A stretch of 58,353 nucleotides of DNA from a virus (lineage: Duplodnaviria > Caudoviricetes): the IMG/VR virus record IMGVR_UViG_3300047300_000852, positions 1 to 58,353 of that record; one strand, 5' to 3'. The position numbers were made by a program, and so were the translations under genes. Each line of letters starts with the position of its first letter. Positions within the stretch are counted from its first letter, which is position 1. Positions 1 through 58,353 of this stretch are shown piece after piece. The notes beneath the pieces were generated by a model. That model did no database searches. It saw only the letters and a list, made by a program, of their open reading frames with translations, and had not been told where the DNA came from.

Positions 1-300
1 AACCTCAGATTAGGTGAGTGGCACGCAGGCATGTTGACCTACGCAGGCTTGATCTTAACACTAGCGGAGCGTGTCCAAGGACCAAGTTGTCATAGTGGGA
101 CAGAGCTTGGATTTTTTGTGAGTTACCGCTAGGACCGATCAATATAGGGAGTTGAACCCCGTTCCTTGTCGCTGGATCGTCACTCCAACTTGCACCGCCT
201 AACGGCGGGCTACCTGCCTGCGGAATGGTCCGCAGTTGCTTGCTCCGAAAGACTCAACACCACGCGCACCCGCTGACAGCACTACCAAGATTTTCATCCG
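1..300 (-). ncRNA. Highly structured non-coding region, probably continuous with 58305-58353 across a circular junction
   Basis: No ORF. Nested stems: 49-54/137-142, 61-67/126-132, 82-86/106-110, 195-199/204-208, 218-224/229-235. 71-80 is the perfect reverse complement of 58327-58336. Strand inferred from genome polarity. Confidence 0.55.
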
Positions 301-326
301 AGATTTGTCCCGTTCTAGCTTGTGGC

Positions 327-355
327 TTGATTTTCAATCGAAGCATCGCTAAAAT
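327..355 (+). promoter_or_regulatory. Sigma70-type promoter for a small antisense RNA
   Basis: TTGATT (327-332), 17-nt spacer, TAAAAT (350-355). Confidence 0.7.
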
Positions 356-361
356 CTCGGC

Positions 362-430
362 AACTGATTAACGGGGGAGTCCGCGAATCAAATAGCCTCG
401 CAGGGGTTAAACCTTGCGGGGTTTTTTTGT
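362..430 (+). ncRNA. ~70-nt antisense sRNA
   Basis: Bounded by the promoter at 327-355 and an intrinsic terminator at 395-430; no ORF; opposite to genome polarity. Confidence 0.6.
395..430 (+). terminator. Rho-independent terminator
   Basis: GCCTCGCAGGG-GTTAAA-CCTTGCGGGGT hairpin followed by a T run. Confidence 0.8.
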
Positions 431-7568: not shown

Positions 7569-8799
7569 TGATCGTCACTCCAACGCCTAGATCAAGCTCA
7601 ACATCCGCAAGCCGACAAGCCTGCAACACAACGCCCGCTGTGAATGTTACCTTGTCCAATGGATCAAGCAACGTTCCGCCTGCGTAGAGGTCACAAGCTG
7701 CTACCGTTTTCGTGGTGCCAACTCGCCCGAAGTTGATCGAACCGCCTTGCTCAACGTGTAGCTTCGTCGTGATGCCTGCCGAGGAATCCCAGTCAACCCC
7801 CGACTGCGAAGATACTTTGACCGTAGCAATCTGCGATGCCTTCGCCACCGTGACGCGTGAAGCATTGCGAGCAATCAACGTTGTGGCGTTGCCCTCAAGT
7901 AGCAGCACTCCACCGTAGATCGTAGCAGTTGTCACCGTGATATTCGATTCACTTTTCACCGATGGACCACCGGCAAAATTATCCCGCTGAATTACATCGA
8001 GGGTGGAAACGTTTCCACTTGATGCCGCCGTAATCACCAGCCCACCAGCATACGAACGCACCGTCGAACCAGCACCAGGATTGCGAAGTTCGTAGGGGTA
8101 TTGCACCCCTGAGTTCTGCCCGGAATTGATCAGGGAGTACGTTACGTTCGATCCAACCACATCGAGCCGAATGCGCCCTGAGAATGTACCCGGACCATAC
8201 CCAAGCGTTACCGTGATCGCTGAGCCACTTCCCAGGGTTAAATGATTCGTGCGGTACTCTGAGTACCCGAGGCTGTTCGTATCCGCTAACCCGATCTCCC
8301 CGGTGAACGATGCGTCAACCGTCAAGCTAGCGTAGTTGTTCGTATCGGTCAGCCCATACAGGATCGAAACGCTGGTATCCGCCACGATCAAGTCATCTGC
8401 CGCGCTCGGCAATGTCGCTGCGTCCCAGTTTGCCGCGACGTTCCAAAAGTTCGGACCACTAGCTGAGGTAGGCTGACTCACTGTAGCAGTTCCGGTCGTA
8501 GCCGTTGCCGTTACGGTGATCGGCACACCTGCTACCGCTGCGGTAAGTTGCAAGCCCGATAGCGTCGGATCCTCTCGCCTGGCTGCAACCATTTCCCGGT
8601 GCTCTGGTTCTGCTGATGAGTTCCACGCGTTGACCAGCGAATCGATCAGGTCACCGAGCGAAGTCGTAGCCGCTGTAATGCTGACCGTCTTACCATTGAT
8701 CGCTACCGAGTATGTATTCGTGGCAACGATCGAAGAAAAAACAACCTTCGTAATTTGTGCGACCGATGCCGCTTTGCCAACCCATCGCTTAGTTGCCAT
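7561..8799 (-). CDS. Minor tail protein, beta-rich
   Basis: Thr/Gly/Ala-rich beta-helix-like sequence; SGPNFWNVAANW motif; position. Confidence 0.6.
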   Translation of the reverse strand: MATKRWVGKAASVAQITKVVFSSIVATNTYSVAINGKTVSITAATTSLGDLIDSLVNAWNSSAEPEHREMVAARREDPTLSGLQLTAAVAGVPITVTATATTGTATVSQPTSASGPNFWNVAANWDAATLPSAADDLIVADTSVSILYGLTDTNNYASLTVDASFTGEIGLADTNSLGYSEYRTNHLTLGSGSAITVTLGYGPGTFSGRIRLDVVGSNVTYSLINSGQNSGVQYPYELRNPGAGSTVRSYAGGLVITAASSGNVSTLDVIQRDNFAGGPSVKSESNITVTTATIYGGVLLLEGNATTLIARNASRVTVAKASQIATVKVSSQSGVDWDSSAGITTKLHVEQGGSINFGRVGTTKTVAACDLYAGGTLLDPLDKVTFTAGVVLQACRLADVELDLGVGVTING

Positions 8800-23445: not shown

Positions 23446-24105
23446 CAGCGAATAGAGCAAAAAGCACCGGCAACGAGGGTGCGCAGGCGGTCCCTGCTTG
23501 AAGTCCTGAAACCACGCAGACGGGCCAGTACCATGCAGCGGACCGCATACTGGGCAAACCCGCTCATCTAGTTTGGTGTACCACTTCACTTTGACGCCGA
23601 CGCCTAGCTCCTTCATTTCATCGATCACCGTACGTTCGGCAATCGTTACCGCTGAGGTAGTCTCCGTGATGGAAACGTTTTCTGCCCTGGAGTCAGGGAA
23701 CAATCGATCGACCGCGAACGTTTCCGGGTCTTGATCCTTTTCGCGCTCTGCCCACCATGCCGAGTTCGTGTCCGTCATCTGATCGCCTAAGCGGTCAACC
23801 TGCCTACGTGATCGCCTGCGAGCTTGACGCTGCAACGTGTCCCATATCGGGCCTTCCTGCTTCGGAGCATCGCCGAGCACCTTCGCGCCTTTGTCATCAT
23901 CCCCGAATAGAATCAGCATCAGGATAATCACCCTGCGGTGAACCTCCTCAATGATCGGACCGACGTATTTTCGCAATGCTCTTTTTATTGCTCGGTTCAT
24001 CGAATCGATGCCCTCAGCAGCAACCTTCACCGCCTCGCGGAATACTTCCTTCATGGCTTCCGTAATGCGTTCTTCGTACCCTTGACGCTCTTTGAGTTCA
24101 GGCAT
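23443..24105 (-). CDS. MuF-like minor head morphogenesis protein
   Basis: RA....TET, W.T..DERVCP.C..LHG, PPAHPRCRC. Confidence 0.9.
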   Translation of the reverse strand: MPELKERQGYEERITEAMKEVFREAVKVAAEGIDSMNRAIKRALRKYVGPIIEEVHRRVIILMLILFGDDDKGAKVLGDAPKQEGPIWDTLQRQARRRSRRQVDRLGDQMTDTNSAWWAEREKDQDPETFAVDRLFPDSRAENVSITETTSAVTIAERTVIDEMKELGVGVKVKWYTKLDERVCPVCGPLHGTGPSAWFQDFKQGPPAHPRCRCFLLYSL

Positions 24106-26270
24106 TAGGGGTAATCCTTCCAGCGTTCGAGCATCGCACGTTGACGGCCTGTGAGTGATTCAGACTCCTTGATGCGGGTCACGTTCGCAAGGTCAGGATT
24201 TACCTTGAGCAACCAAGCCTCACGAACAAACGTCTTACCATCCCAAGGAAACAAATCACCGACCGATTCCTTCAGCAGTTTGGATACGCTCGGACGCGAC
24301 CAGAAACGGCATGACCAGTATCGGGCCTTCCACCTTGGGCCGGGATCGTCGCAGTTGTGGCGTGCCCTGAATCCTTTGCGGCGGCCCGGCTTGTCACGCT
24401 GAATCCGCATGTTCGGATCCCCGAAGTTTACCTTCACCGTATTGCCTTTGTCGTTCTTCACGTAAACTGCGAACTTCTTCGGTCCTCCAGGCGTGCGGAA
24501 TGGCCTTCCGAGGGTCTTGCGTTCTGCCTCAGTCAGTGGGCTTGGTTCAGCCTGAATTGGAGCTTCGTCATCTAGCAAACCGTCGATATCCTGCGATGCC
24601 AACCCGATTGACTTGAGCAGCACCGACGCTACTTGCCGGGTCACTTTCCCGCTGAGGTAATCAGTCAAAACATCGGTGACTGCCTTTCGATTCCTCTGCC
24701 ACTGCAAACGCGAAATTCCCTGCCATTTCGATGATTCCTCCTCGATCTGCCTGGAAACGTTTCCACTTTCAGCATCGTCGGCGCTAGAAACGTTTCCACT
24801 TTGATCAGGCGTCCCAGGCCGCTGTTCAGCCGCTTTCACCACTAGCCCGTTCGCAGTCTCAACGTCGATATCCCGACCGAGTTCGTTGATTGCGGTCTTA
24901 TCTGACACCCAGCCGTTCGCCTTTTGTAGCTGCAGCGCTTGAGTCATCTCAAGTACGTTACGCGGTAGGATTCTCGCCAGTATCACTTCGACCGTCATCT
25001 GATCCTTGAGCATATCGAAACTGTCGATGCCATGATGCCGGAATCGCCCCTTCTCAGCCCCTACGCGAATGATCTTGAGAAGCATTTCCCGCATTCGCTC
25101 AGCCCGTTGAACTTGCTCAGCTTGTCGGCCTTGCATGAACGGACCTTCAGCCACCAAAGCCGATGCAAGGTTTGCGTTCTCATAGCTTCCGGTAAGCATT
25201 CCTTCCGGGAATCCGTGTACCGTTCCGGCAAGTCTCAAGGCCGCTTCCATCACCTGAACGTAAATGTCTGAGTTGTTCGAGCCAAGTAAACCTGCCTTGT
25301 ACTGTTGGCCCACTGGTACGTCTAAACGCGTGCCTGGAAGCATTCTCCGCCGACGCTGTGCCAATCCCGTCAGGGGATCAATCTTGCCCGTCAGTGGAGC
25401 AAATCGCGTGACGATGTTGTTCGCCTGACGCTGCGTTCCCTCTTTGTGCTCAACGATGTACGCGATAGCCGCCTGAGTTGCTGCCCCTTCCGCCGTATTG
25501 GTGAGCACCCTATCGGCCCGGAGCAGATACAAGTGCGGCTTGTAAAAGTCACTGAAACCGCGCTTGGCTCGTCCGCGAACGTTGCGCTTCCAGAATATTA
25601 CGTTTCGTTCGGGCACGTAATCCCAGTCCGTACCGTCCAGTGATCGCACCATGTGGTAGCCGATATGCCGCTCCGGTAGGTTCTTTTTCGTCAGTACTCC
25701 GAAGCTCCAGGAAGGGACGTACGAATCAATTCCTAGCCAATCCTCTAGCGCTCGCTTGTCCGATGGTTCGGTCAATTCATCCGGCTCGCGGGCTACCATC
25801 AAGCACTGCCCGTCATCATAGACCAACTCACCGAGGAACTCACCGTCAGCGATTTCCCGAACGTACGTTTCACGCTCCAGTTCCGAGGACCACTTCGAGA
25901 GGTCAAGGGCTTCGCGTACGTAGTTCTGGATCGCTTTCGTCAGTCGGTCATTGTCGGTCTTGATCGTCCAATCGAACCCAGTGCCTATCGTGTAGTCAAG
26001 CAGGCGGTTCACCCATGCCTGAGCCATTGGCACCTTCTCAACCAGCAACCAACTCATCGCGCGAATCAACTTCAAATCAGACTCGTTTTGATACACTGGG
26101 CGGAAGCGTCCGTCGGCCCGGTCGTAAATCTGCGTGAATGCTCCGAGGCCGTTCGTATTGAAGAACCCCGCCGAGTCAGTCATAAATTCTGTGATATCGA
26201 CCGGCTCGCCCCATGATTCCTGGAGTCGGTCATCTTCTGCAATTGTTCGCAAAGTCTCTACAATGTTCAT
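24105..26270 (-). CDS. Portal protein with long C-terminal extension
   Basis: DGE, RGFSD, G.PE.MLTG...NANLAS motifs of lambda-type portals; first gene of the head operon. Confidence 0.85.
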   Translation of the reverse strand: MNIVETLRTIAEDDRLQESWGEPVDITEFMTDSAGFFNTNGLGAFTQIYDRADGRFRPVYQNESDLKLIRAMSWLLVEKVPMAQAWVNRLLDYTIGTGFDWTIKTDNDRLTKAIQNYVREALDLSKWSSELERETYVREIADGEFLGELVYDDGQCLMVAREPDELTEPSDKRALEDWLGIDSYVPSWSFGVLTKKNLPERHIGYHMVRSLDGTDWDYVPERNVIFWKRNVRGRAKRGFSDFYKPHLYLLRADRVLTNTAEGAATQAAIAYIVEHKEGTQRQANNIVTRFAPLTGKIDPLTGLAQRRRRMLPGTRLDVPVGQQYKAGLLGSNNSDIYVQVMEAALRLAGTVHGFPEGMLTGSYENANLASALVAEGPFMQGRQAEQVQRAERMREMLLKIIRVGAEKGRFRHHGIDSFDMLKDQMTVEVILARILPRNVLEMTQALQLQKANGWVSDKTAINELGRDIDVETANGLVVKAAEQRPGTPDQSGNVSSADDAESGNVSRQIEEESSKWQGISRLQWQRNRKAVTDVLTDYLSGKVTRQVASVLLKSIGLASQDIDGLLDDEAPIQAEPSPLTEAERKTLGRPFRTPGGPKKFAVYVKNDKGNTVKVNFGDPNMRIQRDKPGRRKGFRARHNCDDPGPRWKARYWSCRFWSRPSVSKLLKESVGDLFPWDGKTFVREAWLLKVNPDLANVTRIKESESLTGRQRAMLERWKDYP

Positions 26271-29798: not shown

Positions 29799-29899
29799 GT
29801 TTGAACCTCAAAAAAAGTAACGTTGCAAATTTACCGCCACCCTATCAACGCCACCGGGCCAGTTAAGTACACCAGCCCGGAAACATTTTCGCCAGAAAC

Positions 29900-34138: not shown

Positions 34139-36529
34139 TCAAGCATCCGATTCCGTCACCTCGTGCATACCATGCAAGGCATCCACTGATCGGCATAGCA
34201 GGCCCATACACGCTTCCAGGGAGTCCGGCCCGTCATCGTACTTGCCGTAGGGAAACTCTTTCATCTGGGCCAGTAGCAACTCATTCGAGGCTGACCTACG
34301 GAAACGAAGTAGCCTTCCGTCCAGCCACTTCCCGAGGCGCTCAATCCGCACGTTCTTGTTCACCGTCTGATTTACTAGGATAGGCGGGTCTGCGTTGTAT
34401 CCGATCTCATCGCATACCTGCCAGTAATCATCGGCCAACAAGTCCTGCCATGCGTTCGCCTCAAGTCCCACAAATGCCGTTTTCCGTTCGCGGTTCCACT
34501 GGACGTAATCCCGCACCATCTTCTGTACAGGCTTGCGGTCAATGTCCGAATCGACCCAGAACAACCCGTTCTTGTATCCGATCCAGGTCACTGCTTGATA
34601 GTCACCCTTCCGACTGTTCTTGCCCTTCGACGGGTCAAGCCATGCCGCAGAAATCAAGCAGTCTTTCGGATCAGGGAACTCATCGTCTTGCGCCCAAATG
34701 TTCGCGAAGTATTCTTCCGGCCATTCCGACATACTCGAACCCTTCGGACTACCCTGGTAGATCGAGTGCCACCAGTGTCCGGCCTGCCGCTTCCTTCTCT
34801 CCATCACTTCCGCAGGCCAGCGTTCCGGCCACAACGCTTCACCTTCTTGCCGCTGTAGCGGATCCTTCACCCCGTTCTCTTCTCGCAGGGCTTGAAGGGT
34901 GATCGACCGCACCCGGATATCCAGTTCCGCAGCTTTCGACTCTATCCGGCCTATGAGGTCATCCGAATGCCACTGGGTATTATGGGTCACCATGCCGTTT
35001 GCGATAAAGCTACCAGTATTCTCGACTTCGATATCGTAAACATCTTCATTACCAGCAGGCTCAATAAATACTATTCGTTCACTCGTGAACTCTGAGGTAT
35101 TCAACGAGTCGAGCGGCGGAGGCACTGGTTTCAATATATCCTGCCGCGATATTGCACTGTGTACATAATAATCCCCTGATCTTTCCGGTTTTATGACAGT
35201 GATCGACGCAGAAATTCTTTCGCTTGTGGCAATTCTCATCAGTCCGTTCTTCGAGGCAAACTGCGCATCTTCCTCCCTGAAATTCGAACATTCGCTTGTA
35301 GTCCTCTGCTCTAATTCGATACCTGTGCCACAAATGCGCGTTTCTGAATGTTTCTGGCGTGTGGCTAGGAGGTCTATGCCCGTCAATGGAACGCTTCTTT
35401 GTGTAGTGATTGTTGCAGTATCCCCTACATTTCGCTGGTTTATCGCATCCATCCCATTGGCAATTTTTTCCCTTCCACTTTCCGTGATACTCTGACTTGA
35501 CGTGCCTTCCTTCTCGGCGGTCTTTGTGATAGTGATACCGGCACTTTCCGAGGCAATACCCCTCTCGATCGCATCCCTCGACACCGCAAGATTTTGTTCT
35601 TTGCGGTATGTCACCATTTTCATTTCCGTACTTAAGTTTTTCAGCCTGACCCATTTCAATTCTCCGTTCGTCTCTACCAAAAACGGATGACGGGAATTAC
35701 CAACAATCGACTTGCCGGATTCAAGCATCACCCTAAAAACATCATCGCGCCCTACATTGGCATGATTAACGATACTAGAGTTTACGCACTTTCCGTTGTC
35801 AAACGATTTAACACCCTCACCCGGAGATAGGTCTTTTATTTGCTTAGTTGTTCCATCGGCCATAGAAACCATTGAGCTACCGGCTAGGCAACACAACAAA
35901 ACCAGCTTCCCGCCCGGCTCCAATCGCGTTGATGACGTGGAAACGAACCAATCCCACTGGTCATCGCGGACCTTTTGAGAGTACGCCGACTTCGCGTCCT
36001 TAAGGTAGTCGTCGATCACAAGAAGGTTTGCACCGAATCCCACGATCGACGTAGCCACACCAGCCGCGAGACACTCACCGCTTCGGTGCTCGAATCCCCA
36101 GTTCCTAACCGCTGACTTCTTCTGATCAACTCCATCGAGTCCCATCATCGGCGAAAGCTCGTGCACCTTATCCCGTACCCATCTTGAGTGACTGTTCGCT
36201 AGGGTCGATGTATTCGAGCAAATCATCACCCGTTTGTTCGGGTTTCTCAGCATGTACCAAGCCGGTGCCCATCGTGCCAAGTACTCCGATTTTCCATGGC
36301 GTACAGGGCACTTGATTATCAAGCAATCTAGGTTCGGATTCTCAAGTAGATTCCTGAACTCGAAATCGATTACCGCTAGGTGCTTCGCCCGTTTCCACTC
36401 GCCTTTGCTGAATCGCTCAGCCATCAGTAGCGGGGATCGCATCGCCATTGAATCGAAGTAGACTTGCTCGGCATCCTTGCGGCTCACCCAGTAGGGCCTG
36501 ATCTGATCCATCGCATCAAGCGTAGTCAT
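34139..36529 (-). CDS. Terminase large subunit (intein-containing)
   Basis: P.RHGKS Walker A, LLVIDD Walker B, TQWH.DDL coupling motif, DPS and DDGPD nuclease motifs. Confidence 0.95.
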   Translation of the reverse strand: MTTLDAMDQIRPYWVSRKDAEQVYFDSMAMRSPLLMAERFSKGEWKRAKHLAVIDFEFRNLLENPNLDCLIIKCPVRHGKSEYLARWAPAWYMLRNPNKRVMICSNTSTLANSHSRWVRDKVHELSPMMGLDGVDQKKSAVRNWGFEHRSGECLAAGVATSIVGFGANLLVIDDYLKDAKSAYSQKVRDDQWDWFVSTSSTRLEPGGKLVLLCCLAGSSMVSMADGTTKQIKDLSPGEGVKSFDNGKCVNSSIVNHANVGRDDVFRVMLESGKSIVGNSRHPFLVETNGELKWVRLKNLSTEMKMVTYRKEQNLAVSRDAIERGIASESAGITITKTAEKEGTSSQSITESGREKIANGMDAINQRNVGDTATITTQRSVPLTGIDLLATRQKHSETRICGTGIELEQRTTSECSNFREEDAQFASKNGLMRIATSERISASITVIKPERSGDYYVHSAISRQDILKPVPPPLDSLNTSEFTSERIVFIEPAGNEDVYDIEVENTGSFIANGMVTHNTQWHSDDLIGRIESKAAELDIRVRSITLQALREENGVKDPLQRQEGEALWPERWPAEVMERRKRQAGHWWHSIYQGSPKGSSMSEWPEEYFANIWAQDDEFPDPKDCLISAAWLDPSKGKNSRKGDYQAVTWIGYKNGLFWVDSDIDRKPVQKMVRDYVQWNRERKTAFVGLEANAWQDLLADDYWQVCDEIGYNADPPILVNQTVNKNVRIERLGKWLDGRLLRFRRSASNELLLAQMKEFPYGKYDDGPDSLEACMGLLCRSVDALHGMHEVTESDA
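34979..35890 (-). mobile_element. Intein (304 aa) in TerL
   Basis: Starts CLAGSSMVSMADG, block B N.RHPF, ends VYDIEV...FIANGMVTHN/T; splicing restores LVLLC-TQWHSDDL. Confidence 0.95.
35079..35654 (-). CDS. Endonuclease VII-type HNH homing endonuclease overprinted inside the intein
   Basis: Y..M...QGGRCAVC...VDHCHKTGKIRGLLCTQCN; two N-terminal C...GC....C..HY modules; different frame from TerL. Confidence 0.9.
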   Translation of the reverse strand: MGQAEKLKYGNENGDIPQRTKSCGVEGCDREGYCLGKCRYHYHKDRREGRHVKSEYHGKWKGKNCQWDGCDKPAKCRGYCNNHYTKKRSIDGHRPPSHTPETFRNAHLWHRYRIRAEDYKRMFEFQGGRCAVCLEERTDENCHKRKNFCVDHCHKTGKIRGLLCTQCNIAAGYIETSASAARLVEYLRVHE

Positions 36530-41617: not shown

Positions 41618-41699
41618 TGAATCACCTCCTACCAACACAACGCCACCGACTCATCAAAGTACACTAGTCAGCAGCTCAAAAAGTGGAAACGTTTCCAGG

Positions 41700-42372: not shown

Positions 42373-43791
42373 TCAGCACGCCTTGATTCTTGCAAACCGC
42401 CAACCGCAACGATTTCCATGATCGTCCTCAGCACAAAAACGAAAATCACCAGGAGGCAAAATAACAACAAAAATAAGATCGTTCCATTCAGCTTTTTCGC
42501 TATCCCTGACCTCTACCCTCTTGCCAATATCATCGTTGGTCGGCTCGCGGTACTGCGGCTCCTTCACCGGTTCGACCTTGCGACCATCGAACGGTTCACG
42601 CTCGTCAACCCATACGCCTTCAACATCGTCAAAGTATCCAGGCTTAGCAGTCGAACTATTCGGAGTTTCCGAAGGGTTCGCAGGTTCGATCTTGCGAATG
42701 ATCCTCCGCGAGTAGTACCTAGATTCGACATTGCAATCGCTTAGTAGATCAATCCACTGCCCGTCAATGTCAACATCGTCGCCAGTCTTTGGCACCTCAT
42801 CCGGCTCCAACTCCCTCCATCCTTCCGGTATCGCAAGCGGTTCACTGCTTGAACTATTCGGAGTTACCGAAGGGTTGGCGGTTTTCGTGGCGTCGGCATT
42901 ATGGTCGGTGGGATCTTCTGCGGGTTCAATAAGTTCGAGTTGTTCGGCCCTTAGGTTGAACGAAGTAAGGTTTTCTCGATCAAGCCGAACCGCGTATTCC
43001 CCAGCGTCGCCTTTAACGCATTCGACAATAACACCAACCTTACCATCAGCTATCCTGCCCAGTTTGTTCACCACTACCTTATCTCCAACGCTCGGCGTCC
43101 ACGGCTTAAGAGCGCCAAGTGTGTACATTATGTTCGTGCCATGAAATCCGTATAAGACTGTACCATTGACGATCTTGACGCATTTTACTTTTGCAACTTT
43201 ACCTTCCGGAAGTCGCACCCATCCATCAATCTTTGGCTCCCATTCTGAATACTTTTCCGGCTCAACGCGTGAATCCTCGAAGCAACCTTCCTTAGCGTTC
43301 CATTCGCTGCGCAGCACTAGCCCGTCTCTATCCGGTGCACCGATCGCGGCTCCTGCATCAATCCCAGCTTGATAGCCGTCGATCATTTCTTTCAGTTCCG
43401 ACTCGTACTCAGGCCACTTACCAACAGCGAACGAATCATCGAGCACAGCCGAACTCATTCGCACCAATCGACCGTCAGCCACTTTCGCCAATTCCGTAGC
43501 GTAGATCCCTACTTCATGCAACTCCAGCTTACCGTTGACGTAGATAGCTTCATCGCCTTCGCCATCCGTATACACGCTCAAGTACGTCGTCACACCGGCA
43601 CCGAAATCACTGGAAACGTTTCCACCTGATAACGGCTTTAACACGCTCGATTCATCGATCACCCCAGCGCCGTAAACACTTGCAACGCTGTAAACACTGC
43701 CCGATACCGGCTTGACCGCTACCGGCTTCACTTCCACCGTGAACCCATCGCCGATGATCTCAGCGATGAGCTTTTGTATCTTATCTTTCAT
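42373..43791 (-). CDS. Mosaic multi-module protein (KOW/SH3-like units)
   Basis: VGDKVVV..G.I motif; internal repeat ANPS.TPNSS; shares a module with 31363..31752. Confidence 0.7.
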   Translation of the reverse strand: MKDKIQKLIAEIIGDGFTVEVKPVAVKPVSGSVYSVASVYGAGVIDESSVLKPLSGGNVSSDFGAGVTTYLSVYTDGEGDEAIYVNGKLELHEVGIYATELAKVADGRLVRMSSAVLDDSFAVGKWPEYESELKEMIDGYQAGIDAGAAIGAPDRDGLVLRSEWNAKEGCFEDSRVEPEKYSEWEPKIDGWVRLPEGKVAKVKCVKIVNGTVLYGFHGTNIMYTLGALKPWTPSVGDKVVVNKLGRIADGKVGVIVECVKGDAGEYAVRLDRENLTSFNLRAEQLELIEPAEDPTDHNADATKTANPSVTPNSSSSEPLAIPEGWRELEPDEVPKTGDDVDIDGQWIDLLSDCNVESRYYSRRIIRKIEPANPSETPNSSTAKPGYFDDVEGVWVDEREPFDGRKVEPVKEPQYREPTNDDIGKRVEVRDSEKAEWNDLIFVVILPPGDFRFCAEDDHGNRCGWRFARIKAC

Positions 43792-43818: not shown

Positions 43819-44277
43819 CTATTTTCCAAACACTTCCCGAAGTTGCTCCAACGCTCGACTAACCACGTTCGCCGCACCTTGCTTCGTCAATCCGATCGAC
43901 TCGCCGACTTCCTCCAAAGTCATCCCCTCAAAGTATCGCAATCGGATCACCTCACGCTGTCTTGCGTCCAGGCACGCTAACGCGTCGTGCAACTGGTCAA
44001 CTTCCTCACAGTGGATCAACGCCGCCAGCGGGTTCGAGTAAACCACGTTCGGAGTTTTTTCGAAGTATTTCTGGTCGCGTTTCTTGGATCGGAACGCAGC
44101 ACGCGCCGCACTCTTCGCAGTCCAGACAGCCTTCTTCCTTGGTGCCTTGGCGTAGCTTTGCAGGATAGCAATTGCCGCATCTTGGAGTACGTCGTCGATA
44201 TCCACCCGATCACGTACGGGGAGTAAAACGTTTCCGATGATTCCTTCGATGCCCTTGAGAGATTCCAAAGCGTTCAT
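43819..44277 (-). CDS. ECF-type RNA polymerase sigma factor
   Basis: DDVLQD region 2; L..RQREVIRLRYFEGMTLEEVG..IGLT...SRAL..LR region 4. Confidence 0.85.
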   Translation of the reverse strand: MNALESLKGIEGIIGNVLLPVRDRVDIDDVLQDAAIAILQSYAKAPRKKAVWTAKSAARAAFRSKKRDQKYFEKTPNVVYSNPLAALIHCEEVDQLHDALACLDARQREVIRLRYFEGMTLEEVGESIGLTKQGAANVVSRALEQLREVFGK

Positions 44278-47365: not shown

Positions 47366-48210
47366 GTTAGTCCCTGCAACTTTCTCGTTATGGCTTCGAT
47401 CTCAGTACGCAACACATGGGAGCATTTCGCCGCATCGCAAGCCCGGATAAACTGCCCCCAAACCTGATGCACTTTCGGCATCTTGTTCGGGTCCGGGTCT
47501 GGAAACGTTTCCACCTGCACCGGCTCGGAAGTACGGGTATTCGCAGGGTTCTTGATCTGCGGAGGCTCGATCACATCATCGACCGGACACAAGCAAACCC
47601 TGCAAACATTACCCCCATCGCTTAGCCGTTGTTCGGTAGCTCCACACTCCACACAACGCCACCCAGGGGGAGAAGTAAACTCAGTTTCTTCCTCGCTCTG
47701 AATATTCGAAACGTTGCTTTTTTCTGCGCGTTGCACTGGTTCGACTTGCTCCTCAGCGATCGCATGGTCCTTCGGTTCGTCAGCCCTGCGCATCGATTGA
47801 ACGTACGCATGACTAACGCCGCAAATCTCTGCTATCTCCCTCGAACTCAGGTCAGGGAAGTTAGTAATCGCAATCGTCGCGGCTCGCTTTTTGTCCGCGT
47901 TCGAACGGCGCAAACCATGCTGAGCATTCGCACCGCAAGCCGCCTTGAGTGCATCATGGAATGAGCCAGCGTGCACCTCACACGGGATGCGAGACTTCCC
48001 GACGCTCGTTGCCGCCATCACGCGACAGAACCCATCCACTACCAGGAACTCATCATCGACTTGATAAACCTGCACAGGTGGAAACTTCGCTTGGTTTTTC
48101 CACCCTTCGCGGTACTCATCGATGATCGCTTGCGGTACCTCGGTTCGGCATTGCAGCCGAGAGTCCAGCACTAGTAGTTCCGTCGCTAAATTTCTTTTCT
48201 TTGCCGCCAC
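47362..48210 (-). CDS. ParB-family protein (ParB-N/CTPase-like domain plus HTH)
   Basis: FPPV.V..VVDGFCRVMAA (GxxRxxA), N..HGL, SSREIAEICGVSHAYV HTH. Confidence 0.85.
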   Translation of the reverse strand: MAAKKRNLATELLVLDSRLQCRTEVPQAIIDEYREGWKNQAKFPPVQVYQVDDEFLVVDGFCRVMAATSVGKSRIPCEVHAGSFHDALKAACGANAQHGLRRSNADKKRAATIAITNFPDLSSREIAEICGVSHAYVQSMRRADEPKDHAIAEEQVEPVQRAEKSNVSNIQSEEETEFTSPPGWRCVECGATEQRLSDGGNVCRVCLCPVDDVIEPPQIKNPANTRTSEPVQVETFPDPDPNKMPKVHQVWGQFIRACDAAKCSHVLRTEIEAITRKLQGLT

Positions 48211-51120: not shown

Positions 51121-51188
51121 TCAACCATCCTCCATAAATCGGGAAACAAACCTACCACAACCTAACAACGCCACCGAGCTGAGCCTGT

Positions 51189-53575: not shown

Positions 53576-53656
53576 TTTGCACCTCGTTTTAGACTCTCAA
53601 AAGTGGAAACGTTTCCACCTACTTAACGCCGCCAACCAATAAAAGTAACGTTGTTT

Positions 53657-54565: not shown

Positions 54566-54629
54566 CGTTCAACCTTTCGAAAAAAAGTAATGTTCCTTTT
54601 TTTAACGCCACCCAGTCGGAAAAGTAAAC

Positions 54630-56090: not shown

Positions 56091-56253
56091 CGTCAAAACC
56101 TCCATCATGGAAAAAAGAATCTTACCCACCAGAACAACGCCACCGAGCAAAAAAAGTAAACTTGCTTTTTTCTGAAACGCAAACAGGCCGAACACGGCCC
56201 GCCTGCAAAATCACTGGTGACTCACTAATTCAGCCTGGAAACGTTTCCAGCGT

Positions 56254-57363: not shown

Positions 57364-57415
57364 ACCCATACGCCCGAAGGCGTTTCGCTGGAATTTCACC
57401 AGCTCATCAGTGGGC
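57364..57415 (-). ncRNA. Type I hammerhead ribozyme
   Basis: GCCCA CUGAUGA GCUGG-UGAAAUU-CCAGC GAAA CGCC-UUCG-GGCG UA UGGGU; canonical core. Confidence 0.92.
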
Positions 57416-57690
57416 TAGCAGTACCAAACTTGCACTTCGGTGTAGTTGGCTTTGGCGTAGGCCAGGGTGCTTTCGAACGTCGCGTTGGTGTCCTTGTTGA
57501 CAGCCTTGACCACGCTACCCGATCCGTCAACGACCTGAATCAACTCACCGCCGTTTCCGGTCATTTGCCAAATCTCCACAGTTTTTCCGGCTTTGTTACG
57601 GCAGGTGAAGTGCCGCCAGCCGTTTTTGCGAGTGTGATCGTTAGCCTTACTTGCTGGGGAGATACCGCGATTTGTTGCTACGTTATCCAT
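57415..57690 (-). CDS. Early hypothetical protein
   Basis: AAAGG RBS; start moved to ATG 57690. Confidence 0.7.
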   Translation of the reverse strand: MDNVATNRGISPASKANDHTRKNGWRHFTCRNKAGKTVEIWQMTGNGGELIQVVDGSGSVVKAVNKDTNATFESTLAYAKANYTEVQVWYC

Positions 57691-57741
57691 GATTTCTACC
57701 TTTTCAGAGTTACAACACACGGGCAACGTTTTGCCCTCATA

Positions 57742-57776
57742 CATACCTAGGCAGATTACGCCGACGAACTAGGCGC
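57742..57776 (-). promoter_or_regulatory. Early-class promoter
   Basis: GCGCCTAG-N16-GCCTAGGTATG. Confidence 0.75.
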
Positions 57777-57906
57777 GGACAGGTAATTTTATTTCCAAAA
57801 AGTGGAAACGTTTCCAGCGCCTAGATCATTTTCCCAATGTTTTCATTGGTCGGACGTTTTCAGACTCGCAGAAAAAAAGAACGTTACTTTTTTCTTGATT
57901 GACCGC

Positions 57907-58311
57907 CTAGCTACCCGTTTGGGGGGGGGTGATGAACGCCTTAACGACTTGCTCAACATCTTTTGCGAGCGGCATCCAAAATTCGCCTTTTCGGTCGAAT
58001 CCAGAAAACCTCATCCCTTCCAAAGTCGCAGCGTTCTGAAACCAAAACCGAAAGCTTTGTTCGGACCACCTACCCCTCAAGTCTTGCATCACCAGGGAGC
58101 AAACGAGTTTTTTGCCGAGATCCCATCGTGGCCGAACCCCTTCGCAATCTCGCTTGATCCTATCGAGAACAGCTATTTGCAAATGACTCAAACCGTAACC
58201 ACGCCATTCGCACTCACGTTCTGCCTGCCTGATTCTAGCCTCGATTGTTTTTTTGCTAGTGCCTTTTTTCGCCATCACTTCGCCTTGATTTTTCTTGAGT
58301 TCTGCGCGCAC
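57907..58311 (-). CDS. Hypothetical protein downstream of the structured RNA
   Basis: ORF; start either GTG 58311 or ATG 58275. Confidence 0.6.
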   Translation of the reverse strand: MRAELKKNQGEVMAKKGTSKKTIEARIRQAERECEWRGYGLSHLQIAVLDRIKRDCEGVRPRWDLGKKLVCSLVMQDLRGRWSEQSFRFWFQNAATLEGMRFSGFDRKGEFWMPLAKDVEQVVKAFITPPQTGS

Positions 58312-58353
58312 CCGTTTCTAATTGTTCCTTGGACACAAGTCTAAGGATTTCGG

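Follow-up and report, generated by a model that had tools for sequence, protein, structure and literature searches.

The two ends of the IMG/VR virus record IMGVR_UViG_3300047300_000852 (Duplodnaviria; Caudoviricetes; 58,353 nucleotides (nt), referred to here in its full length as the window) raise the question of what a long folded RNA, read from the minus strand and running out of one end of the record into the other, is doing opposite a short RNA gene on the plus strand. The original prediction had taken this pair for an RNA-controlled origin or rep-translation switch in a circular phage-plasmid. Comparison with relatives leads us to a different reading, to which we lean with somewhat more trust than doubt: the long RNA is a free-standing phage non-coding RNA (ncRNA) gene under cis-antisense control, acting as a folded RNA in its own right. 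The features discussed are located in Table 1.

The window is an entire IMG/VR virus entry of class ‘linear’, that is, without end repeats, and a near-complete phage genome, CheckV putting its completeness at 97%. In relatives, homologues of its two ends appear side by side. In the 60-kb contig L010 the counterpart of the last late gene is followed by sequence homologous to window 332→218 and then by homologues of the early genes at 56.9–54.7 kb; L012 shows the same read-through from the last late gene across the element to the early genes; and L026 matches window 953→8 and then, 12 nt on, 58353→58289, where the window has 7 nt (a difference of about 5 nt). In an alignment of 13 sequences, the window's final 54 bases align directly after the homologue of position 1 in every relative. 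Close-strain contigs from three other runs (X2, X3 and X4) continue for 90, 160 and 469 nt beyond position 1, the sequence of these extensions not being displayed; in the sole run that holds the window in full (X1), the contig stops within 1 nt of position 1, and X1 is possibly the source of the record and so not independent. Because relatives read across the join and close-strain contigs extend past position 1, the genome map is read as circular or permuted, and the apparent ends of the record as an assembly cut through the RNA gene. The adjacency of the ends on which the original prediction depended is thereby upheld in L010, L012 and L026.

The structured RNA comprises about 387 nt of the minus strand, running 333→1 and then 58353→58300 across the join. 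A consensus fold of 11 sequences (RNAalifold) scores −163 on the minus strand versus −135 on the plus strand. In alignment A3, where the row for the window lacks its last 54 nt, 14 helices with 89 pairs are found with 90.6% of cells paired, as against 38–43% when the partners are slid; 48 of the 89 pairs have changed on both sides, and the covariation score of 0.40 compares with 0.07–0.10 for the slid controls and is reached by none of 500 shuffles. Double changes occur, for instance, in 8/14 pairs of P1 and 10/12 pairs of P7, and P8 and P9 are 100% paired in this 11-member family. Since G-U cells (118) outnumber A-C cells (18), the minus strand is the folded strand; GNRA-type tetraloops are present, and compensatory changes preserve the helices in a strand-specific manner, as is required of structured RNAs in general. 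The roughly 300 nt of nested minus-strand hairpins, and the long RNA spanning the window ends that had been proposed from them, are thus borne out by alignment and covariation. Clades differ by whole sub-domains, L013 and L014 having a single hairpin in place of P4–P5, as is usual for real RNAs. The closest relative, L020 (87% identity over 3.3 kb), diverges sharply within the RNA at about 217; the two sequences become alike again only from 57926 on, so that a cassette made up of the RNA's 3′ domain and the first early gene has been exchanged.

Two repeats had been singled out at this locus. The first, GTGTCCAAGG at 71–80, is the exact reverse complement of 58327–58336, and the helix that these arms (X and Y) can form is kept in 11/11 family members through differing sequences with compensatory changes. 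Duplex energies average −22.3 kcal/mol for cognate arms and −13.8 kcal/mol for non-cognate, cross-clade combinations of the 11 sequences. X:Y is stronger than the alternative local pairing X′:Y in all 11 (−21.6 versus −9.5 kcal/mol in the window; X′:Y ranges from −9.5 to −16.5). Because X lies inside the P7-closed loop and Y outside P3, the helix, as judged from the alignment, is a pseudoknot, so that what was first described as a pseudoknot-like arrangement can be restated as a conserved long-range one. The second repeat, CGCGCACCCG, occurs exactly at 263–272 and 58305–58314, but relatives do not keep it as a repeat; the two copies are probably the strands of a helix closing the whole RNA body, in which 93.8% of cells are paired and 3/10 pairs change on both sides (weak covariation). 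It had also been proposed to cover a start of the first early open reading frame (ORF). GTG 58311 does lie inside the closing helix, and ATG 58275 has the better Shine-Dalgarno sequence.

On the plus strand, the predicted antisense unit consists of a promoter and a terminator that taken alone are not above chance: 1600 nt hold three promoter-like sites against 0.9 expected and one terminator against 1.6 expected. Its weight comes from conservation. The promoter recurs at the homologous place in 13/13 sequences (TTGATT, TTGAAC or TTGTTT, 16–17 nt, then TAAAAT or TACAAT) around a spacer of varying sequence, and the terminator hairpin stands at the same place in all clades with differing sequences, followed in most clades by a plus-strand U run. 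A run of at least four U, 52–63 nt past the predicted start, was found in 11/16 sequences checked and not in L015, L025, L032 or L041, the match in L016 being spurious. On the minus strand no U run directly adjoins this hairpin (T). The 69-nt RNA of the window folds at −29.8 kcal/mol (z = −5.0), and the units modelled in relatives measure 58–69 nt and end in a strong hairpin in 11/11. The plus-strand promoter–terminator pair for an RNA of about 70 nt, as originally described, is therefore present and, by comparison with relatives, conserved.

Between these fixed ends the sequence runs free. The 5′ body of the antisense RNA is the least conserved segment in 4/5 close pairs, at 40–76% identity versus 85–100% in the adjacent promoter and 5′ domain. 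Its identity is 40% in L015/L016 (structured RNA 96–98%), 45% in L013/L014 (85–99%) and 76% in L017/L023 (95–98%); it reaches 81% in L017/L018, where the structured RNA stands at 89–90% and the upstream promoter is lower still (55%), and 88% between the window and L020, where the lowest segment is the mosaic 3′ domain (50%). Close strains, among the matches listed (at least 20 more exist), differ from the window mainly at 370–386 and 406–408. A conserved promoter and terminator around a fast-changing body fits a cis-antisense RNA with no need for a conserved seed, because the target would change together with the antisense RNA; and the unit combines its own promoter and terminator, kept in place, with full complementarity to the overlapping predicted transcript. 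Elsewhere in the genome no trans target was found above chance, shared 9–12-mers being at chance level.

The opposing transcript is expected to begin at a phage-type promoter upstream of the RNA. Within its GGTGGCGTTA element, the core TGGCGTTA is invariant in 13/13 aligned relatives, and the window holds 11 sites of this motif at up to one mismatch (3.3 expected), 11/11 on the minus (coding) strand. The family consensus is GTTTACTT-N11-GGTGGCGTTR, and most copies precede early genes. Its spacing and CGTT element resemble those of extracytoplasmic function (ECF)-type promoters, and we infer that the phage's own ECF-like sigma factor reads the family. The leader hairpin H0, which follows this promoter, is also present in a computed fold.

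How far the RNA reaches beyond this lineage was addressed with a gapped pattern for the P8–P9 core, which matches 27 stretches in IMG/VR viral contigs at an expectation well below one (a rough estimate): six contigs already in hand, four close relatives and 17 with otherwise dissimilar flanks. In all 17 distant stretches, the bases after the core complement a site 50–220 nt downstream, beyond which come an A-rich stretch and then a G run. Over 23 sequences including the distant clades, cognate X:Y duplexes average −17.3 kcal/mol versus −11.3 kcal/mol for non-cognate ones; for L034, L047 and L042 the automatic choice of Y differed from the site read by eye. P8 is 100% and P9 98.8% paired in 20 distinct sequences, a covariance model of P7–P10 built from 11 members matches 22/22 sources at E ≤ 0.01, and in the alignment fitted to it the P7 pairs, where present, change on both sides. 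The core is common to at least ten lineages of uncultured, mostly freshwater phages, at least nine of them beyond the present one.

Its surroundings differ from clade to clade. L034 and L047 share the 5′ domain and place the RNA, with its own sigma70 promoter (extended −10) and a 5′ hairpin, between the portal gene and an opposite-strand neighbour gene. In L035 it lies upstream of the terminase gene on the same strand, and in L051 beside a serine recombinase. In the L036 group a strong sense promoter precedes the core by about 200 nt; the G run of L038 and L052 leads directly to a hairpin and U run, with an antisense promoter–terminator pair just upstream (clear in L052, weaker and read by eye in L038). 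No protein family is common to the neighbourhoods of different RNA-bearing clades. A protein-based scan of genome contigs found no host or prophage copies; an 18-nt pattern scan of the same kind of contigs gave five matches that share 18–24 nt, the chance level, and were rejected.

No described family claims the element. Against Rfam 15 (4227 models), the window matched tRNA-Arg alone at the gathering score; at E ≤ 1 nothing fell on the element in the window ends and L010, or at the core in six distant loci, and at E ≤ 10 there were just weak, terminator-driven small-RNA matches on 363–430. Families without a match include GOLLD, ROOL, HEARO, RNase P, tmRNA and group I introns; a likeness of the P8 flanks to the RNase P P4 region was dropped because no model supports it. 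Full-text literature look-ups returned no description of this RNA. The accessible part of an IMG/VR-wide survey of viral structured RNAs reports motifs of 29–151 nt (PMC10690425), so that an RNA of about 387 nt would not appear there as one unit, and pieces of it may stand in the supplementary lists; a 2026 preprint on coevolutionary mining, as far as its accessible part goes, concerns a different, reverse-transcriptase-linked phage RNA array. The RNA is most aptly classed as a new family of large phage ncRNAs, in this lineage with a cis-antisense RNA that would control it.

Under our preferred reading of a free-standing ncRNA gene, transcription of the long RNA would start at the phage-type promoter, and the transcript would cross a leader of about 155 nt (H0, then the complement of hairpin T) into the structured RNA, continuing in this phage into the first early ORF. 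The covariation shows the RNA to fold into a closed multi-helix body that the pseudoknot ties to its 3′ tail. The convergent, host-type sigma70 promoter would make an RNA of about 69 nt ending at T, fully complementary to the leader, which may lower both the yield of long RNA and read-through into the early gene, either through cleavage of the duplex that the two RNAs form or through converging polymerases that collide. With an antisense body that evolves fast, this control would be strain-specific, and such a hypervariable partner offers a testable handle on regulation. The long RNA itself would bind a protein or ligand, or act catalytically, and is probably not a primer or rep leader. Three points favour a free-standing gene over either: in other phages this fold comes with a promoter or terminator of its own, the genes around it lie in either orientation, and in most relatives a separate promoter stands between RNA and early genes.

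Several points weigh against this reading. None of the 24 sequencing runs listed is of RNA, a result silent on expression itself; every transcript and start site, as well as the direction of control, is a prediction from sequence. The −35 of the window's upstream promoter is poor, reading GTGGA in place of the GTTAC or TTTAC of relatives. The paired percentages are inflated, since the structures under test had been predicted from these very sequences. The core pattern itself served to retrieve the distant loci, so that their core matches arise by construction, and only 10/22 sources match the P7–P10 covariance model at full length. In most relatives the RNA is followed by another promoter of its upstream promoter's family, which leaves the 3′ end of the RNA undefined in this lineage. 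In the window and L026, the ORF starts 25–35 nt past the RNA and has no promoter of its own, as would equally suit a cis-acting leader; and the fast-evolving antisense body could be an unconstrained spacer.

We put forward tentatively, and with clearly less confidence, a wider form of the preferred reading: that the RNA is the first member to be described of a widespread, phage-specific class of large tertiary-structured RNAs of the standing of GOLLD and ROOL, a trans-acting folded machine whose dosage is gated by a fast-evolving cis-antisense RNA and whose conserved core consists of the P8–P9 hairpin, the adjacent X:Y pseudoknot, and the A-rich stretch with its G run. If so, an RNA acting in trans may bind or sequester a host protein or signalling molecule, or catalyse a reaction. 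GOLLD and ROOL are, in the accessible part of PMC12286853, large, richly structured phage-carried RNAs that come mostly from environmental sequence and whose function is not established. The present RNA shares with them many covarying helices, large size and carriage by phages; it differs in matching no Rfam model, in not lying next to tRNA genes, in having an antisense partner in this lineage, and in its length of about 390 nt. GOLLD and ROOL measure about 580–800 nt. Large structured RNAs of no known function are rare and have repeatedly opened new biochemistry; this one is notable for strong covariation, a long-range pseudoknot, a conserved 35-nt core in at least ten lineages and the lack of an Rfam match.

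Table 1. Positions of the RNA elements, promoters and gene regions in the window
Feature	Position	Strand	Description
Structured RNA, first 333 nt	1–333	minus	helices P1 to P10 and pseudoknot arm X (RNAalifold, covariation)
Structured RNA, last 54 nt	58300–58353	minus	arm X′, arm Y, A-rich linker, 3′ strand of closing helix (alignment with relatives)
Most conserved core	79–114	minus	AAAUCC, P8 (110–106/86–82), P9 (102–99/91–88), then ACAAC..GGUCC
Pseudoknot arm X	71–81	minus	inside the P7-closed loop; 11 bp with Y
Pseudoknot arm Y	58326–58336	minus	outside P3; alternative, weaker local hairpin with X′ (58346→58339)
Putative closing helix	261–270 with 58303–58312	minus	GC-rich; 8/10 pairs form in the window
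Phage-type promoter	490–520	minus	−35-like GTGGAAAC, then GGTGGCGTTA (503→494); start expected near 488
Leader hairpin H0	462–480 (480→462)	minus	UUGGAA-type loop conserved; stem covaries between clades (alignment read by eye)
Sigma70-type promoter of antisense RNA	327–355	plus	TTGATT-17-TAAAAT; place conserved
Intrinsic terminator	394–430 (hairpin T, 394–423)	plus	12-pair stem, then U run TTTTTGTTT
Predicted cis-antisense RNA	362–430	plus	about 69 nt, two hairpins; complementary to about +58 to +126 of the minus-strand leader
First early ORF	57907–58275 (58275→57907)	minus	122 amino acids; directly after the RNA; no phage-family promoter of its own
Promoter-family sites	494–503, 29846–29855, 41638–41647, 47654–47663, 51166–51175, 53624–53633, 54603–54612, 56135–56144, and others	minus	
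ECF-like sigma factor gene	43819–44277		phage-encoded
Early and DNA-metabolism region	58 to 37 kb	minus	AAA ATPase, DUF3799 nuclease, ERF, ParB-like protein; two SF2 helicases, RusA, ECF-like sigma factor, two methylases
Next in transcription order		minus	intein-bearing large terminase, then sliding clamp and tRNA-Arg
Late genes	last late gene 563–1555	minus	portal, capsid and tail genes

The alternative that survives best, although we regard it as doubtful, is that of a cis-acting early-operon leader, riboswitch-like or of the processive-antitermination kind, in which the choice between Y/X and Y/X′ pairing would set early-gene expression and the antisense RNA would tune entry. It stays alive for this phage because the first early ORF follows the RNA at once, as it does in L026. 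The ability of Y to pair with either partner in 11/11 sequences, the position of GTG 58311 in the closing helix, and the place of the RNA upstream of a same-strand terminase gene in L035 are likewise in its favour. A leader would sit oddly, however, with the separate promoter that most relatives have between the RNA and the early genes, with flanking genes on the opposite strand in L034 and L047, and with the terminator-like hairpin after the RNA in L038 and L052; nor is there a U run after Y, or a start codon after its purine-rich stretch. To our knowledge, leaders of the riboswitch or antitermination kind are also far shorter than 387 nt.

The ORF in question is real, being 45% identical to its homologue in L026 (E = 9e-28). 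A large protein search returned two other homologues and a viral-contig search none, and the ORF is absent from most relatives. It has no Pfam or PHROG match, and its structure model (predicted local distance difference test score 80.7) matched nothing in the PDB at E ≤ 0.001. The structure prediction that had been suggested for it thus revealed no recognisable initiator, and an RNA switch in front of a rep gene is not supported: the downstream frame has no family or fold match and is missing from most relatives.

An RNA-primed origin of the ColE1 type, the long RNA being the pre-primer and the antisense RNA controlling copy number or immunity, we consider unlikely. As in ColE1 RNA II/RNA I, a long folded transcript faces, towards its 5′ part, a fully complementary antisense RNA of about 70 nt (about 70–100 nt for the type) whose promoter is constitutive and convergent; new specificities would arise from small changes in the antisense region, and in evolving fast the body is reminiscent of an incompatibility determinant. 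In all clades an A-rich tract comes after the RNA. The protein scan covered 52 ORFs, with about 25 late-region ORFs outside it, and confirmed among the former the earlier statement that no integrase, DNA polymerase, primase or Rep-type initiator is recognisable, so the phage would have to use host polymerases; sliding clamp, helicases, ERF and RusA are present. GC skew never changes sign; its values of about −0.19 in the early half and about −0.13 in the late half show the asymmetry expected of two-way replication from the join, a weak signal that gene content could also explain and that, all genes lying on one strand, can stem from transcription.

Nothing typical of an origin was found, with no iterons at the join and no DnaA-box match in the window, and an origin reading that rests on analogy, absent phage polymerases and weak skew asymmetry is at present unsupported. 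Unlike ColE1, the locus has no located origin and matches neither RNAI nor any other plasmid antisense RNA in Rfam; its antisense RNA overlaps about +58 to +126 of the transcript and not the extreme 5′ end, and has two predicted hairpins and not three. Downstream of this overlap comes the structured part, which is also present in phages without the antisense unit. The same core stands elsewhere between portal and terminase-like genes or next to an integrase, in places with its own promoter or terminator, which would be odd for a primer and speaks equally against a leader tied to a rep gene. A phage-plasmid is similarly unsupported, the ParB-like protein being the only hint.

A role for the conserved structure at the DNA level, be it in packaging or as a single-strand origin, is very improbable: it sits at a module boundary, near portal or terminase genes in several other phages, and its strand asymmetry would also fit a fold of single-stranded DNA, but promoters precede it in three different lineages, GNRA-type tetraloops are present, 118 G-U cells are tolerated, one clade has a terminator-like end, and in this phage it lies 34 kb from the terminase gene.

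Among known systems, IncI-alpha/IncB resembles the locus in its antisense RNA of about 70 nt (Inc RNA), in the long-range pseudoknot of the repZ sense RNA and in the position upstream of an ORF. It differs in that here there is neither a rep gene nor a leader peptide, the pseudoknot is a helix of 10–12 bp within a 387-nt fold and not a contact between a loop and a ribosome-binding site, and the antisense complement (362–430) covers neither pseudoknot arm, being at least 280 nt from both; IncB-type logic, on which the original prediction had drawn, is therefore not supported. Lambda OOP, P22 sar, P4 CI and P1/P7 c4 are likewise small phage RNAs with their own promoter and terminator that act on an overlapping or nearby phage transcript; there the target is a repressor or antirepressor mRNA, here the leader of a large ncRNA, and the scanned ORFs include no lysogeny genes. 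The P1 c4 and P4 CI immunity RNAs are included in Rfam, and neither covariance model matched. The layout, in short, works like ColE1 RNA I/II and the phage cis-antisense RNAs, and tests of membership placed the locus in none of ColE1, IncB/IncI-alpha or P1/P4.

All long ORFs of the genome are on the minus strand. There appears to be no close cultured phage: DNA 1–1600 and the capsid protein gave no match to cultured relatives, the portal matches cultured phages via its C-terminal domain only, and the AAA ATPase matches one distant phage (35%). The 472-amino-acid ORF at 42373–43791 has no Pfam, PHROG or PDB sequence match. In the portal ORF (24105–26270; residues about 560–690), the C-terminal ~100 residues have matches among small, free-standing proteins of Pelagibacter, Roseobacter and Flavobacterium phages and of a Nitrosopumilaceae virus, some annotated as HVA1 family, and this part is likely a fused accessory domain. 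The large terminase gene (34139–36529, minus strand) is split by an intein, with Intein_splicing and Hint domains lying between the N-terminal part of the terminase and its remainder.

Three further sequence elements were noted. The 16-nt palindrome GTGGAAACGTTTCCAC has 23 sites in the window at up to two mismatches, against 0.01 expected (for example 8003–8018, 53603–53618 and 57802–57817); it is often followed by a T run or adjoins the promoter motif, occurs in relatives too, and may serve as operator, weak terminator or processing hairpin. In L015–L018, an A7-N8–10-T7 inverted repeat lies between the RNA and the next promoter, where the window has an A-rich stretch encoding the Lys-rich start of its ORF. 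Finally, just after the stop of ORF 57415–57744, the minus strand holds a complete-looking type I hammerhead ribozyme (57365–57450; core 57382–57410), with CUGAUGAG and CGAAAC cores, a hairpin as stem II, a UUCG-closed stem III, and a GUA cleavage site near 57369. It scores only 22 bits in Rfam, to the permuted type III model, and chance alone would yield 0.04 copies of the core pattern; L020 has the ribozyme as well, its stems I and II showing compensatory changes, and, judged by its sequence, it would cut the early transcript.

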